A DNA stretch of 64,000 bases from Escherichia phage JLBYU50 (OK272470.1), one strand, 5' to 3'. Shown: positions 11,165-14,563, counted from the stretch's first letter. Notes: generated from the letters alone by a model not told the origin. Program-made: numbers and translations.

Positions 11165-11431
11165 ATGACAGAAAATACTTATGGTAAAGAATTGATTGAG
11201 AAGCACGTATTGATTGATAATAAAGGTGGAGCAATCTTTCTTTTTGATCCTGAATCAGTTCTTACTGAAAACGAAAATGGTAGCGTTAGCCTTAAAACAG
11301 AAAGTTTGGTAATTGACTTCCTTGCTCTTCTGGATGAAATGGGGCTTCCTCACGAAGAAGAAGCAGCTATTGCTTTGATTACAGTTCTTCTGGAGAAACG
11401 CGAAGCTGGTGAAATGACCCAGTATGCTTAA
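11165..11431 (+). CDS. hypothetical protein (88 aa)
   Basis: ORF track; AAAAGGAG RBS. Confidence 0.5.
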   Translation: MTENTYGKELIEKHVLIDNKGGAIFLFDPESVLTENENGSVSLKTESLVIDFLALLDEMGLPHEEEAAIALITVLLEKREAGEMTQYA

Positions 11432-11438
11432 TATTCAA

Positions 11439-11514
11439 GGTTCCATAGCTCACTGACGAGAGCGCACACCTCATAAGTGTCGAGGGCAGGGATTGTAACC
11501 CTGGGGAACCACCA
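11439..11514 (+). tRNA. tRNA with CAT anticodon (Met/Ile-type), non-canonical D- and T-loops
   Basis: complete cloverleaf: acceptor GGTTCCA/GGGAACC, D-stem GCTC/GAGC, anticodon loop CTCATAA, T-stem CAGGG/CCCTG, encoded ACCA; T-loop is ATTGTAA rather than TTCRANY. Confidence 0.45.
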
Positions 11515-11545
11515 TTTAAAAGGAGGTGCTATGCATCTCCTATAT

Positions 11546-11631
11546 GCAAGTGTGGTGGAATTGGTGATACACATTGTGCTTAAAACGCAACGCTTAAATG
11601 CTTGAGGGTTCGAATCCCTCCACTTGCACCA
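11546..11631 (+). tRNA. tRNA-Leu (anticodon TAA)
   Basis: acceptor GCAAGTG/CACTTGC, anticodon loop CTTAAAA, long variable arm, T-loop GGTTCGAATCC, ACCA encoded. Confidence 0.8.
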
Positions 11632-11647
11632 ACACCTAAAAAAATAT

Positions 11648-11677
11648 CTTGACATTTACTTAGTTTTTTGTTATAGT
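11648..11677 (+). promoter_or_regulatory. sigma70-like promoter inside tRNA array
   Basis: TTGACA 11648-11653, 18-nt spacer, TATAGT 11672-11677. Confidence 0.45.
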
Positions 11678-11687
11678 TACTATGAAA

Positions 11688-11769
11688 ACGGGGTGTATCT
11701 CACCTGACTTCTAATCAGGCGTTAACCGAGTAATTGGAGTATGCAGGTTCGAATCCTGTCACCCCGGCC
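11688..11769 (+). tRNA. atypical tRNA-like gene, anticodon hairpin reads TCT (Arg-type)
   Basis: perfect acceptor CGGGGTG/CACCCCG, canonical T-arm GCAGG-TTCGAAT-CCTGT, GCCA 3' end, perfect hairpin CCTGA-CTTCTAA-TCAGG; no conventional D-arm fits between acceptor and this hairpin. Confidence 0.4.
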
Positions 11770-11787
11770 AAAAAGTTTTAAAAACTA

Positions 11788-11817
11788 CTTGACAAGCAAG
11801 ATAGTTTTATGTTAGAT
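11788..11817 (+). promoter_or_regulatory. sigma70-like promoter inside tRNA array
   Basis: TTGACA 11788-11793, 18-nt spacer, TAGATT 11812-11817. Confidence 0.4.
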
Positions 11818-11833
11818 TTAAAGTATAATAACT

Positions 11834-11923
11834 GGAAGGTAGGGCGCAGCGGTGCGCAACCAGGTTTGAACCCTGGCCCATTGTAGCGATACGGTGATGG
11901 TTCGACTCCATTATCTTCCTCCA
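11834..11923 (+). tRNA. tRNA-Ser (anticodon TGA)
   Basis: acceptor GGAAGGT/ATCTTCC, anticodon stem CCAGG/CCTGG with loop TTTGAAC, long variable arm, T-loop TTCGACT, TCCA 3' end. Confidence 0.7.
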
Positions 11924-11929
11924 AATTCA

Positions 11930-12094
11930 ATGAGTGATTTTATGAATTATAAAACTATTGGACAGGTTGTTACCGGAGTTAAGATTGTAAATAATAAAGT
12001 TGTTTATGAGTATTCTAATCTTCAACAATCTGAAGATGGTAAGAATATTCGTATGGTAAAAGAAGAACAAAAAGATTCCGGTTGTTTTGAATAA
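11930..12094 (+). CDS. possible small protein (54 aa) between tRNA genes
   Basis: ORF-track ORF 11894..12094 starts inside the tRNA-Ser; first ATG after the tRNA is at 11930; no clear RBS. Confidence 0.25.
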   Translation: MSDFMNYKTIGQVVTGVKIVNNKVVYEYSNLQQSEDGKNIRMVKEEQKDSGCFE

Positions 12095-12102
12095 TTAAAA
12101 AC

Positions 12103-12188
12103 GGTAGATTGGTGAAATGGTAGCCACAACAGTTTGCTAAACTGTCGTCGGAAACGGCGTGTAGGTTCAAGTCCTACATCTACCGCCA
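12103..12188 (+). tRNA. tRNA-Ser (anticodon GCT)
   Basis: acceptor GGTAGAT/ATCTACC, anticodon stem ACAGT/ACTGT loop TTGCTAA, long variable arm, T-arm TAGG-TTCAAGT-CCTA, GCCA. Confidence 0.8.
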
Positions 12189-12315
12189 AGTTATCTTTAA
12201 TGTAGCTTGTCATCTTACTTTAATAGAGTAAACTTTCGGCAGATGGCCCCCCACCATCTTACCGATATCCCATAGTCAAGTGCCGCAAACACTGGCTATT
12301 TTAAAGATAATTTAT

Positions 12316-12391
12316 ACATCGTTAGCTTAGTTGGTAGAGCAAGGGGCTTTTAACTCCAAGGTCGAAGGTTCGAATCCTTCACGATGTACCA
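12316..12391 (+). tRNA. tRNA-Lys (anticodon TTT)
   Basis: acceptor ACATCGT/ACGATGT, D-arm TAGCTTAGTTGGTAGAGC, anticodon loop CTTTTAA, T-loop GGTTCGAATCC, ACCA. Confidence 0.75.
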
Positions 12392-12396
12392 AACAC

Positions 12397-12483
12397 GTAG
12401 GTATCGCATAGCGGCAATTGCTGGAGACTGTAAATCTCTTGCCCTTCGGGGCTTCGTTGGTTCGAGTCCAACTACCTGCACCA
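12397..12483 (+). tRNA. tRNA-Tyr (anticodon GTA)
   Basis: acceptor GTAGGTA/TACCTGC, anticodon loop CTGTAAA, long variable arm, T-arm GTTGG-TTCGAGT-CCAAC, ACCA. Confidence 0.75.
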
Positions 12484-12490
12484 AATTAAA

Positions 12491-12575
12491 GATGGATTGG
12501 CCTAGTGGTTGGGCGACGGACTGTTAATCCGTGAACGAAAGTTCTAGCAAGGTTCAAATCCTTGATCCATCGCCA
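12491..12575 (+). tRNA. tRNA with GTT anticodon (Asn-type) carrying a long variable arm
   Basis: acceptor GATGGAT/ATCCATC, anticodon stem ACGGA/TCCGT loop CTGTTAA, 15-nt variable hairpin GAAC-GAAA-GTTC, T-loop GGTTCAAATCC, GCCA. Confidence 0.55.
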
Positions 12576-12580
12576 AATAG

Positions 12581-12646
12581 TGCTTGTAGAGTTAATAGAA
12601 ACCTCTAGAATTTTCTAGAATTGTAGGTATCAAATCCTACCAAGCA
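12581..12646 (+). other. degenerate tRNA-like remnant
   Basis: acceptor-like TGCTTG/CAAGCA and T-arm-like GTAGG-TATCAAAT-CCTAC, but no foldable anticodon arm and no CCA. Confidence 0.25.
12604..12620. repeat. tandem direct repeat TCTAGAA-TTT-TCTAGAA
   Basis: two copies of TCTAGAA (each containing palindromic TCTAGA) separated by TTT, read directly at 12604-12620. Confidence 0.7.
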
Positions 12647-12654
12647 AATATTTT

Positions 12655-12729
12655 GCTCCTATCGTATAACGGCTATTACGGTTGCCTTGTAAGCAACTTA
12701 TCAGGGTTCGAGTCCTTGTGGGAGCACCA
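12655..12729 (+). tRNA. tRNA-Thr (anticodon TGT)
   Basis: acceptor GCTCCTA/TGGGAGC, anticodon stem GTTGC/GCAAC loop CTTGTAA, T-loop GGGTTCGAGTCC, ACCA. Confidence 0.8.
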
Positions 12730-12751
12730 ATTTAACTCTAAAGGAGTGTAT

Positions 12752-13075
12752 GTGACAGAAAAAGAGTTAGAGGAATATTTTAATATCAATGTTTTCGATG
12801 GTTTTGATGATATTGAAGATGTTGAAAGATATTATGAAGTAGAGTTAGATAAGGATAACATTGTAATTCTTTCTGCAACTTATGATTGTGCATATTATGA
12901 AGGCGAATCTCACGTTTATTTTTATGATATGAAAACATCTTTGTTTTATGAAGTACACGCATATCATTGTTCTTGTTATGGCTTAGAAGGTCAGTGGGAA
13001 CCTGAAGAAATAGGTGATTTGGACTTTACTATTGCATATCTAAACAGACGTGGTGCATCTACTATTTTAAAATAA
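12752..13075 (+). CDS. hypothetical protein (107 aa)
   Basis: ORF-track ORF 12653..13075 starts inside tRNA-Thr; start re-set to in-frame GTG at 12752, 5 nt after AAGGAG. Confidence 0.4.
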   Translation: MTEKELEEYFNINVFDGFDDIEDVERYYEVELDKDNIVILSATYDCAYYEGESHVYFYDMKTSLFYEVHAYHCSCYGLEGQWEPEEIGDLDFTIAYLNRRGASTILK

Positions 13076-13089
13076 ATATCAAAAGCCTC

Positions 13090-13119
13090 TTGACAAAGGG
13101 GCTAATAATATGTTAGAGT
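13090..13119 (+). promoter_or_regulatory. sigma70-like promoter inside tRNA array
   Basis: TTGACA 13090-13095, 18-nt spacer, TAGAGT 13114-13119. Confidence 0.4.
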
Positions 13120-13130
13120 AATATTGTTAA

Positions 13131-13205
13131 GCGGGTATAGTGTTAATGGTAGCATATGAGGTTTCCACCCTCCAGGTGCAGGTTCAAGTCCTGTTACTCG
13201 CTCCA
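13131..13205 (+). tRNA. tRNA-Gly (anticodon TCC)
   Basis: acceptor GCGGGTA/TACTCGC, anticodon loop TTTCCAC, T-arm GCAGG-TTCAAGT-CCTGT, TCCA. Confidence 0.75.
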
Positions 13206-13304
13206 AGATTATTTAAATGGAATCGCTAGAGAAAATTTCTCTTTTCGCTCATGGTTTTCTCCTTCAAACTCTAGCGGTTCTTTTTAAGTGATTTTTAGTT
13301 TTAT

Positions 13305-13379
13305 TGGAGATTAGCCTAGTGGGAAGGCAACGGCCTTTGAAGTCGTGATGACTAGGTTCGATTCCTAGATCTCCAGCCA
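13305..13379 (+). tRNA. tRNA-Gln (anticodon TTG)
   Basis: acceptor TGGAGAT/ATCTCCA, D-arm GCCTAGTGGGAAGGC, anticodon loop CTTTGAA, T-arm CTAGG-TTCGATT-CCTAG, GCCA. Confidence 0.8.
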
Positions 13380-13386
13380 ATATTTA

Positions 13387-13462
13387 CAGTGCGTAGCGCA
13401 GTTGGTAGCGTGGGAGCCTTGGACGCTTCAGGTCGCAGGTTCGAGTCCTGCCGCACTGACCA
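13387..13462 (+). tRNA. tRNA-Pro (anticodon TGG)
   Basis: acceptor CAGTGCG/CGCACTG, D-arm GCGCAGTTGGTAGCGT, anticodon loop CTTGGAC, T-arm GCAGG-TTCGAGT-CCTGC, ACCA. Confidence 0.8.
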
Positions 13463-13467
13463 AATTT

Positions 13468-13542
13468 GCAGAGATAGCTGAGACGGATTAGTGCTACCCT
13501 GAAAAGGTAGAAAGGATGGATCGTTACCATCTCTCTGCACCA
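13468..13542 (+). tRNA. tRNA-Phe (anticodon GAA)
   Basis: acceptor GCAGAGA/TCTCTGC, anticodon stem CTACC/GGTAG loop CTGAAAA, T-stem GATGG/CCATC (loop ATCGTTA), ACCA. Confidence 0.7.
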
Positions 13543-13617
13543 AATATCACCATCCAAGGAGTAGACTTGGTTAACTGTCAATAGCACATTGAGGCTTCTT
13601 ACAGTGGTGTATTTTAT

Positions 13618-13702
13618 GGCTAAGTGGTGGAATGGTATACACGATACGCTTAGAACGTATTGCCCCAAGGGATTGTGAGTTCGAGTCTCACCTTAGCTAC
13701 CA
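13618..13702 (+). tRNA. tRNA-Leu (anticodon TAG)
   Basis: acceptor GGCTAAG/CTTAGCT, anticodon stem ATACG/CGTAT loop CTTAGAA, long variable arm, T-arm GTGAG-TTCGAGT-CTCAC, ACCA. Confidence 0.8.
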
Positions 13703-13780
13703 TATCTAAGAGATATCATAGGGTTTGCAACGGATATCTACCGTCCTGTTAAGGATACCACGCCAAGACGGGTTATAAAG

Positions 13781-13856
13781 GGTTAGCCATTGATAGTGTG
13801 AAGCTGGCGTTTCGAGTGCTTTCATAAGGCATTGCGAGAAGAGTTCGATCCTCTTA
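13781..13856 (+). tRNA. tRNA with CAT anticodon (Met or Ile-lysidine type)
   Basis: perfect acceptor TGATAGT/ACTATCA, anticodon loop TTCATAA, T-arm AAGAG-TTCGATC-CTCTT, ACCA. Confidence 0.65.
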
Positions 13857-13871
13857 CTATCAACCAAATTA

Positions 13872-13950
13872 TTACAGATTGTGCGGGATAGAGGAGTCTG
13901 GTCGTCCTCGCCAGTTTCATATGCTGGAGATCATCGGTTCGAATCCGATT
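13872..13950 (+). tRNA. tRNA with CAT anticodon (Met or Ile-lysidine type), 1:72 mismatch
   Basis: acceptor TGCGGGA/TCCCGCC with unpaired first position, anticodon loop TTCATAT, T-arm ATCGG-TTCGAAT-CCGAT, TCCA. Confidence 0.6.
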
Positions 13951-13994
13951 CCCGCCTCCAATAAATACCTCCCTTCTGGTGTAATGATTAAGTT

Positions 13995-14091
13995 ACATTG
14001 ACACTTCAAGGAACTCATAGCCGGGTAGATTTAAAAGAGTATGGTACTCAATATGGCTCCAAACCATAGATCAGGGGGTTCGATTCCTCAC
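13995..14091 (+). tRNA. tRNA-like element with Trp-type anticodon arm (CCA); 5' half non-canonical
   Basis: perfect anticodon arm TATGG-CTCCAAA-CCATA, T-loop GGTTCGATTCC, GCCA 3' end; no 7-bp acceptor partner at the expected distance, only a 5-bp CAAGG/CCTTG pairing about 40 nt upstream. Confidence 0.35.
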
Positions 14092-14106
14092 CTTGCTGCC
14101 AATTAT

Positions 14107-14182
14107 TGTGGTATCGTACAGATGGTTAGTACACTCGACCGATAATCGAGAAACAACGGTTCGACTCCGTTTACCACGACCA
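14107..14182 (+). tRNA. tRNA-Ile (anticodon GAT)
   Basis: acceptor TGTGGTA/TACCACG, D-arm GTAC-AGATGGTTA-GTAC, anticodon stem CTCGA/TCGAG loop CCGATAA, T-arm AACGG-TTCGACT-CCGTT, ACCA. Confidence 0.75.
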
Positions 14183-14293
14183 AACTCCGTGCCAGCGGTG
14201 TCTTCGAAGAACAAGCCTAGTTCCTTCTGAGATGGAGGGGTGCGACTCCTTAACGCACAATATACTACTACTAAATACTTATCAGGAGATATC

Positions 14294-14563
14294 ATGTATA
14301 CTTTAAAAGTAATTCGCAAGTTTCCTCAAGAAGAGGAAGTAAGAATTTATAACACTGTACCATTCGTAGTAAATGAAGAAGAATTCTTTTATTGCTTAGA
14401 AGATGAAGTAATTATTCAATATCATTGGGAAGGTTACGACAGACAAGATGGTGTTGTAGCTTCTGTGCTTGCTGGTGATAGAGTGTTATTCATTCACAAG
14501 ACTGAATCAGCATATCTAATGAATGATAAAGGACAAACTGTTAAAGTAATTAACAGACCATAA
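14294..14563 (+). CDS. hypothetical protein (89 aa)
   Basis: ORF-track frame; start re-set to ATG 14294 preceded by AGGAGA RBS. Confidence 0.5.
   Translation: MYTLKVIRKFPQEEEVRIYNTVPFVVNEEEFFYCLEDEVIIQYHWEGYDRQDGVVASVLAGDRVLFIHKTESAYLMNDKGQTVKVINRP

Follow-up and report, generated by a model that had tools for sequence, protein, structure and literature searches.

What kind of gene lies in a phage tRNA array if its acceptor stem and T-arm are canonical but no D-arm can be folded between the acceptor strand and the anticodon arm? According to a 2024 paper, all known bacterial tRNAs are cloverleaves, and natural arm-less tRNAs are found only in mitochondria (PMC11551756). Textbooks likewise describe any tRNA of bacteria or of the cytosol as a cloverleaf with four arms. 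The locus that raises the question belongs to Escherichia phage JLBYU50 (OK272470.1), of which a stretch of 64,000 nucleotides, here called the window, was analysed as a whole. Its phi92-like coliphage tRNA array houses a non-cloverleaf tRNA-Arg gene at 11689–11770 (+). An earlier note on this DNA had set the span one base too early (11688–11769) and had offered three descriptions of it: a D-arm-less tRNA, a tRNA with an unusual insertion, or a tRNA-derived regulatory RNA.

The 2.9-kb tRNA array of the window is 97–99% identical to that of Escherichia phage phi92 and its relatives (Justusliebigvirus, Stephanstirmvirinae). ARAGORN called 16 tRNA genes in the window, all on the + strand between 11439 and 14182 and none of them for arginine; it made no call at 11689–11770, where the gene is flanked by tRNA-Leu(UAA) and a 90-nt tRNA-Ser(UGA). 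In phi92 and most of its relatives the gene carries no annotation, and a few records list it as tRNA-OTHER or tRNA-Undet. The elements that the earlier note had picked out by eye were all recovered in the sequence. These are a perfect acceptor stem of seven Watson-Crick pairs, a 5-bp hairpin with an anticodon-like TCT that begins 7 nt past the acceptor strand (connector TATCTCA, 11696–11702), a stretch given as about 23 nt that proved to be exactly 23 nt (11720–11742), a canonical T-arm whose first pair is G-U, and an encoded GCCA (11767–11770). Element by element, the locus reads as follows.

11649–11677 (+): promoter-like site of the sigma-70 type (TTGACA, 17 nt, TG-TATAGT), with 11/12 consensus matches and an extended −10 TG; a consensus match only
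11689–11695 (+): 5' strand of the acceptor stem, CGGGGUG (CGGGGTG in the DNA), pairing with CACCCCG at 11760–11766
11696–11698 (+): connector U-A-U, the equivalents of U8 and A9 plus one U; invariant in 55/55 Arg-type genes and in 88/88 of the listed Ile/Met-type genes, an invariance partly imposed by the search patterns and filter
11699–11702 (+): 5' strand of a candidate helix, helix X (CUC), followed by A11702, which is unpaired in the window copy and forms a fourth pair in 13/55 relatives
11703–11719 (+): anticodon arm CCUGA-CUUCUAA-UCAGG (stem strands 11703–11707 and 11715–11719, loop 11708–11714), with the anticodon UCU at 11710–11712 and with U33 and A37 present
11720–11727 (+): bulge CGUUAACC on the 3' side, between the anticodon stem and helix X, with invariant C, U, A and A
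11728–11730 (+): 3' strand of helix X, GAG, covarying with CUC at 11699–11701
11731–11742 (+): D-loop-like single strand UAAUUGGAGUAU, invariant in the Arg family, an invariance partly imposed by the search patterns
11743–11759 (+): T-arm GCAGG-UUCGAAU-CCUGU, with a canonical T-loop
11760–11770 (+): 3' strand of the acceptor stem, CACCCCG, then discriminator G73 and the encoded CCA, as read from the sequence

The locus has the general hallmarks of a tRNA: a 7-bp acceptor and a 5-bp T-stem, a T-loop of the consensus UUCRANY, a discriminator followed by CCA, and a 5-bp anticodon stem closing a 7-nt loop (CUUCUAA) with U33 and a purine at 37. The local hairpin between positions 9 and 26 that completes a four-arm cloverleaf is missing. 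The covariance-model search that had been suggested as a check matched the Rfam tRNA model (RF00005) over its full length (model positions 1–71) with 38.6 bits against a gathering score of 29; the corresponding E-value of 1.4e-4 for the whole window indicates a match far beyond chance. In the Rfam alignment of 11689–11770 the D-arm was deleted, with 4 nt in place of 15 model positions, and 20 nt were inserted in the variable region. Sequence, Rfam alignment and folding all bore out the earlier claim that the space from the acceptor strand to the anticodon arm holds no foldable D hairpin. A standard cloverleaf, one of the outcomes named beforehand as refuting that claim, was recovered by neither ARAGORN, the Rfam tRNA model nor inspection.

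Other parts of the array also depart from the ordinary. The tRNA-Ser(UGA) at 11834–11923 (+), about 65 nt downstream, is 90 nt long and folds with acceptor, T- and D-stems of 8, 4 and 5 bp, the D-stem being closed by a tetraloop, and with a long variable arm. Its sole Rfam match was to tRNA-Sec, at 35.3 bits and thus below the gathering score of 47, and the phi92 record marks it as a pseudogene; it resembles the tRNA-Ser of (8/4) geometry that Mukai et al. 2017 described from phages (PMC5389517). The 85-nt tRNA-Asn(GUU) at 12491–12575 (+) has a class-II-like stem-loop variable arm, which is unusual for Asn. Two ARAGORN calls of tRNA-Met(CAU), at 11439–11514 and 13791–13866 (+), had no Rfam tRNA match even at E ≤ 1, and in the former the T-loop departs from the consensus (GATTGTAA); both may be unusual tRNAs or else spurious calls. 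Between tRNA-Met and tRNA-Ile, positions 14024–14100 (+) gave a weak tRNA-Sec-like match (22.4 bits, E = 0.28) and no ARAGORN call, and the phi92 locus-tag series skips t016 at the matching gap. Compared with window positions 11400–14300, the arrays of phi92 relatives differ by insertions, so that matches are split into two to four pieces, and HNH endonuclease genes are annotated under these matches, which suggests homing-endonuclease traffic inside the tRNA cluster of these phages.

Comparison of relatives was used to examine the fold. At least 55 distinct relatives of the gene were found in unrelated phage groups (IMG/VR and GenBank phages), and BLAST against 50,697 phage records returned 254 that carry at least 80% of the gene. 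The Arg set of 55 distinct sequences was built by IMG/VR pattern scans on top of the BLAST matches and then aligned; search patterns and extraction filter account in part for the invariance of the TAT columns 8–10, the CTTCTAA loop, CGTTAA and GGAGTATG, the last of which was fixed in two of the patterns. Annotated carriers include Justusliebigvirus, Felixounavirus (heid), Vequintavirinae (BIS47, W70), the 361-kb jumbo phage Turkey3 and the 70-kb phage ManiMatter_Bas94; in heid, BIS47, W70, Turkey3 and ManiMatter_Bas94 the gene is either unannotated or lies under a called CDS. Deposited CDSs run across it in heid (L002, 1546–1944, the start of an ‘HNH endonuclease’) and in BIS47 (L005, 1413–1535, a ‘hypothetical protein’), and these are probably mis-called starts or spurious ORFs. 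At several loci the gene is the sole tRNA called nearby. Among 5,426 complete E. coli genomes there was no match to the family. A pattern scan of bacterial and archaeal genomes returned 120 stretches, of which 116 were due to chance and four were real, the latter in dense phage-like tRNA arrays on MAG contigs. A relaxed pattern for extra anticodons was also tried, and nearly all of its additional matches were due to chance. A side observation concerns the T5-like Salmonella phage GSP044, whose 87-nt tRNA-Thr(UGU) (L114, 376–462), with a 15-nt variable region, has anticodon stem and T-arm sequence in common with the window gene.

The standard helices are strongly constrained in the 55-sequence alignment. 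The acceptor stem is paired in 99% of cells, with both-side changes in 7/7 pairs and with wholly different sequences between lineages; the anticodon stem is paired in 94.5% and the T stem in 99.3% of cells. For all helices together, 94.5% of cells are paired and 19/21 pairs show both-side changes. CCA is encoded in 35/55 relatives, including the window copy, and the second position of the anticodon loop is invariantly U. A covariance model specific to the family scored its members at 81–101 bits and the window gene at 97.6 bits, compared with at most 43 bits for ordinary tRNAs. Relaxed constraint, broken stems or a missing half, the marks of a pseudogene or fragment, were not seen.

The same alignment changes the description of the two unassigned stretches. 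The absence of a local D hairpin stands, but neither ‘D-arm-less tRNA’ nor ‘tRNA with an unusual insertion’ captures the comparative result: the 7-nt connector and the 23-nt stretch are not spacers, since three nucleotides of each pair with one another and covary. Alignment columns 11–13 (CUC, 11699–11701) form standard pairs with columns 40–42 (GAG, 11728–11730) in 165/165 cells, 33 of which are changed on both sides. There are 15 strand combinations, and the middle pair occurs as UA, GC, AU and CG. The covariation score of helix X was 0.638, compared with 0.134 after shuffling, and 0/500 shuffles reached 0.638; slid registers were just 16–41% paired. For columns 12:41 and 13:40 the mutual information is 1.44 and 0.97 bits, respectively, which lies within the range of the canonical stem pairs, and G11728 covaries perfectly with C11701. 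On the 5' side, helix X stacks straight onto the anticodon stem, while on the 3' side a conserved 7–8-nt bulge, CGUUAAN(N), intervenes; the bulge is UCA in a shorter-bulge Arg(ACG) variant (L048) and NGAAA in Ile/Met-type relatives. A mutual-information scan of the Arg family for further tertiary covariation returned helix pairs only, everything else being invariant.

Thermodynamic prediction did not favor helix X. Nearest-neighbour evaluation of the window RNA gave −21.4 kcal/mol with helix X and −22.7 kcal/mol for the three standard helices alone, a cost of 1.3 kcal/mol, and the minimum-free-energy (MFE) fold reached −26.3 kcal/mol. RNAalifold, applied to the 55-sequence alignment, predicted the three standard helices only, with neither helix X nor the variable hairpin discussed below. 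Because of this unfavourable energy and the absence from the RNAalifold prediction, support for helix X is purely comparative. Given that the connector pairs with the 23-nt stretch in 100% of cells and with compensatory changes, the D-arm of this phage tRNA-Arg appears better described as rewired than as absent, with helix X predicted to prolong the anticodon stem.

If the D-stem has moved, where is the D-loop? The 12-nt strand UAAUUGGAGUAU resembles the D-loop of E. coli argU (AGUUGGAUA), and its order can be read as A14, R15, Y16, Y17, G18, G19, A20, ..., A21. We propose that it holds the equivalents of A14 (11732), R15 (11733), G18 and G19 (11736–11737), A20 (11738), A21 (11741) and Y48 (11742), the last of which lies directly before the T-stem, as position 48 does in a normal tRNA. 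In the Arg family the R15/Y48 pair is invariantly A-U and thus shows no variation.

A sister family with the same architecture provided that variation. Ile-type relatives first surfaced in the search with the family covariance model, and a dedicated IMG/VR scan then brought the Ile/Met type to at least 88 distinct phage genes (for example L123, 5506–5582; L152, 5865–5940 (−); and L327–L443). ARAGORN made 0 calls among the 88 listed genes, whose anticodons are UAU (54), CAU (19) and GAU (15). Helix X is paired in 88/88 of them, in eight sequence types, and the U-A-U connector is kept. Across the listed genes the strand takes the form UA-R-...-GG-U-...-C-A-Y, with the U after GG in 84/88, and the discriminator is A in 88/88. 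The R15 and Y48 equivalents covary, being A-U in 41, G-C in 36 and other combinations in 11 of the 88 listed genes (Fisher p = 1.6e-17), and both states recur within the same helix-X and anticodon subgroups. This covariation, as read from the alignment, is the signature of a Levitt pair, which argues that the tRNA core is kept. Moreover, the nucleotide after GG (UGGA in the Arg type) is always A in the Arg family and U in the Ile/Met type (84/88 listed). In bacteria, U20 is an Ile determinant and A20 the main determinant for E. coli ArgRS (PMC9976931). The A versus U contrast after GG thus matches that between Arg A20 and Ile U20, supporting the reading of this strand as a D-loop.

All 55 anticodons of the family are arginine anticodons (UCU in 51, UCG in two, CCU in one and ACG in one), and the discriminator is G in 27, A in 24 and U in four genes. 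The identity set of bacterial tRNA-Arg comprises A20, C35, U/G36 and A/G/U73 (PMC9976931); C35, U or G at 36, and an A, G or U discriminator were found in 55/55. Where a phage has a large tRNA set, the family gene supplies an arginine anticodon otherwise missing from that set. One locus has canonical tRNA-Arg genes with GCG, UCG and CCU anticodons and a family UCU gene (L199); another has canonical UCU and ACG and a family UCG gene (L123); four combine a canonical ACG with a family UCU gene (L016, L021, L128 and L204); and in the window and in Felix-like loci there is no tRNA-Arg besides the family gene. The exception, and the only co-occurrence of its kind seen, is L026, where a canonical tRNA-Arg(UCU) adjoins a family UCU gene (1525–1598 (−) and 1614–1692 (−)), so that redundancy-free complementation is not universal. 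With an arginine anticodon in every member, complementing co-resident canonical tRNA-Arg genes, the tRNA-derived regulatory RNA is the least supported of the three descriptions put forward earlier. In the long ORFs of the window (38% G+C), AGA accounts for 28% of Arg codons, or 11.1 per 1000, and AGA is among the rarest codons of E. coli. The promoter-like site ends 11 nt upstream of the mature 5' end, which would leave a leader of only about 4–5 nt.

[quoted passage not shown] Taking this tolerance together with the arginine anticodons, the identity set, the complementarity, the AGA demand and the promoter-like site, we conclude that the locus is probably (at a rough probability of 0.7) a functional, aminoacylatable tRNA-Arg(UCU), an AGA decoder charged by host ArgRS, with a swapped D-arm connectivity. 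Such a tRNA would let the phage read AGA, a codon that it uses often and its host rarely, and probably AGG too. In the proposed fold, CUC, following U8-A9-U, pairs with GAG 3' of the anticodon arm to form the D-stem-like helix X, which would lengthen the anticodon stem. The strand UAAUUGGAGUAU would then reach the T-stem and take over the role of the D-loop, with A14 pairing with U8, R15 pairing with the nucleotide that precedes the T-stem (the Levitt pair), GG docking onto the T-loop, and the A after GG serving as the A20 determinant read by ArgRS. The sequence order, [1–9], [D-stem strand, 26, anticodon arm, bulge], [D-stem strand, D-loop], [48, T-arm, acceptor], implies that the canonical blocks 10–21 and 22–48 would have exchanged places. 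An L-shape would still be possible, with an acceptor/T branch of 12 bp and an anticodon branch of about nine stacked layers. From the observed helices, conservation, arginine-only anticodons and complementarity with co-resident tRNA-Arg genes, we infer the 3D threading of the strand as well as transcription, RNase P processing, charging by host ArgRS and use on the ribosome.

Several other readings of the locus have to be weighed against a rewired AGA decoder. It could simply lack a D-arm, as mitochondrial tRNA-Ser(AGY) does, with an unstructured connector in its place and a class-II-like variable hairpin (CCGA-GUAA-UUGG). This hairpin, with its GNRA-like tetraloop, is present in both the MFE (−26.3 kcal/mol) and the centroid fold of the window RNA, and in the Rfam alignment the stretch appears as extra nucleotides of the variable region. 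Across the 55 relatives, however, only 71% of its cells are paired, with essentially no both-side changes and 10–26 broken cells per pair; it is absent from the RNAalifold prediction, C11701 covaries with G11728, and Ile/Met-type relatives do without such a hairpin. A conserved variable-region stem-loop, as in a class II tRNA, was thus not found, and we regard this reading as very unlikely. Somewhat better placed, if still unlikely, is a non-decoding tRNA mimic, which would act as a decoy or antidote against a tRNA-Arg nuclease or a tRNA-sensing defence, or as a sponge or regulator of ArgRS or a modification enzyme. Defence systems are now known to cut tRNAs in anticodon loops, in stems, in D-loops and in tails, cleavage of D-loops being reported for some of them (PMC12916289), and there are known cases in which phage tRNAs neutralise defences directed at tRNAs (PARIS, retrons). 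Selection for a task other than fitting the ribosome could account for the odd fold, and in L026 a canonical tRNA-Arg(UCU) is already adjacent. Yet a decoy needs no covarying acceptor, Arg-compatible discriminator, CCA, canonical T-loop or perfect 7-nt anticodon loop, and has no need to track four arginine anticodons that fill gaps beside canonical tRNA-Arg genes; nor would it account for the Ile/Met identity marks A73 and U20 kept in the sister family. Counter-defence and decoding are, moreover, compatible with each other.

The missing D-arm and the lack of an ARAGORN call would also fit a decaying tRNA-Arg pseudogene or a fragment left by a rearrangement, as would the GenBank records, most of which are blank or labelled tRNA-OTHER or tRNA-Undet, and the flagging of a neighbouring tRNA as a pseudogene in phi92. 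Decay is contradicted by the pattern of covariation and selection: the 55 distinct sequences, whose acceptor stems differ completely between unrelated lineages, are under strong purifying and compensatory selection, neither acceptor strand is missing, and a promoter-like site precedes the gene. We give this explanation hardly any credence. Equally hard to credit is a mischarging tRNA that would insert serine or another residue at AGA in the manner of an allo-tRNA. Bacterial allo-tRNAs with AGA/AGG anticodons exist (PMC5389517), the stretch from anticodon arm to T-arm is long, the window copy has G73 as tRNA-Ser does, and an (8/4) tRNA-Ser-like gene adjoins. But the family does not conserve the variable hairpin that SerRS needs, its discriminator may be G, A or U, the acceptor/T lengths are 7/5 rather than 8/4 or 9/3, neither the A20 equivalent nor C35 varies, and AGA occurs in phage ORFs at ordinary arginine frequencies.

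The rewired tRNA-Arg can be compared with known tRNAs element by element. E. coli argU and phage T5 tRNA-Arg(UCU) share with it G73-CCA, the D-loop motif A-R-U-U-G-G-A and a presumed AGA-reading role. The argU anticodon loop (CUUCUAA) is identical to that of the window gene; the T-arm is identical in the T5 tRNA and near-identical in argU (GCAGG-UUCGAAU-CCUGY), and the acceptor 5' strand of the T5 tRNA (CGGGGUG) is identical, with one base different in the 3' strand. Both of these tRNAs have their D-stem 5' of the anticodon arm, where it closes the D-loop, whereas in the rewired gene the D-stem-like helix would close the anticodon arm, the D-loop-like strand lies 3' of that arm, and a 5-nt variable loop is lacking. 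Permuted and split tRNA genes (Cyanidioschyzon, Nanoarchaeum) likewise have a non-canonical order of segments, but processing or trans-splicing restores a normal cloverleaf; the rewired gene shows no sign of such processing, and its covarying helices fit the RNA as encoded.

For D-arm-lacking mitochondrial tRNAs, extra pairs extending the anticodon stem have been proposed. Mitochondrial tRNA-Ser(AGY/AGN) lacking the D-arm are the nearest natural analogues (PMC4013460). Arm-lacking mitochondrial tRNAs are short, with degenerate T-loops, a lost elbow, a Y-like shape and co-evolved machinery (PMC11551756); the phage RNA, in contrast, has about 78 nt plus CCA, a canonical T-loop and a GG-containing D-loop-like strand, and so is not of the mitochondrial type, in which a D-replacement loop stands without any D-stem or D-loop equivalent and the elbow is lost. 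No conserved partner protein was found near the rewired gene, the neighbourhoods of which vary among phage groups; in the lack of a conserved partner gene, the phage tRNA must use unmodified host machinery. The synthetic, D-arm-less mini HisT on which evolved E. coli relies (Edelmann et al., NAR 2024) carries an engineered deletion of nucleotides 11–25 with no replacement for the D-stem or D-loop, and a PNPase mutation was needed for its accumulation, whereas the phage tRNA is natural and would retain counterparts of the D-stem and D-loop, only reordered. Allo-tRNAs and (8/4) and (9/3) tRNAs (Mukai et al., NAR 2017, PMC5389517) resemble it in their non-standard geometry, their occurrence in phage tRNA clusters and their being overlooked by annotation; they differ in that their stem lengths are altered with the cloverleaf order kept, while the rewired gene keeps 7/5 and alters the connectivity. 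In the openly searchable full-text literature on D-arm-less, non-canonical and unusual phage tRNAs, we found no description of this RNA, which would make this a non-cloverleaf design without a found report for tRNAs working in bacterial cells.

A broader reading takes the fold beyond decoding. Tailed phages of many lineages would carry a rewired tRNA class (Arg, Ile and Met/Ile2 at least), with D-loop and anticodon arm swapped in position, whose fold was selected to satisfy host synthetases, EF-Tu and the ribosome and yet to escape host tRNA-directed immunity, in the form of nucleases recognising D-arm, elbow or anticodon-stem context, or else the phage's own enzymes that destroy host tRNAs. 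We put this forward tentatively, as a speculative extension and on balance a doubtful one. A dual role, with decoding combined with insensitivity to tRNA-directed host nucleases, is a possibility. Were the immune-escape reading true, it would constitute a structural escape route distinct from the known anticodon-loop mutations.

If the rewired tRNA-Arg is charged and used, coliphages as common in the laboratory as phi92 and the Felix O1-like and rV5-like phages have always run a non-cloverleaf tRNA through unmodified E. coli translation. It would then offer a natural and genetically tractable test of the connectivity needs of ArgRS, RNase P, the CCA-adding and modification enzymes, EF-Tu and the ribosome, for which the canonical and rewired tRNA-Arg(UCU) genes side by side in L026 are a useful natural comparison, and orthogonal tRNAs could be built on a new kind of scaffold. 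Phage tRNA annotation would prove to overlook such genes systematically, most GenBank records leaving this one blank or covering it with a CDS, which biases studies of phage codon compensation, and the idea would arise that tRNA architecture itself is a battleground between phages and tRNA-targeting defence systems.
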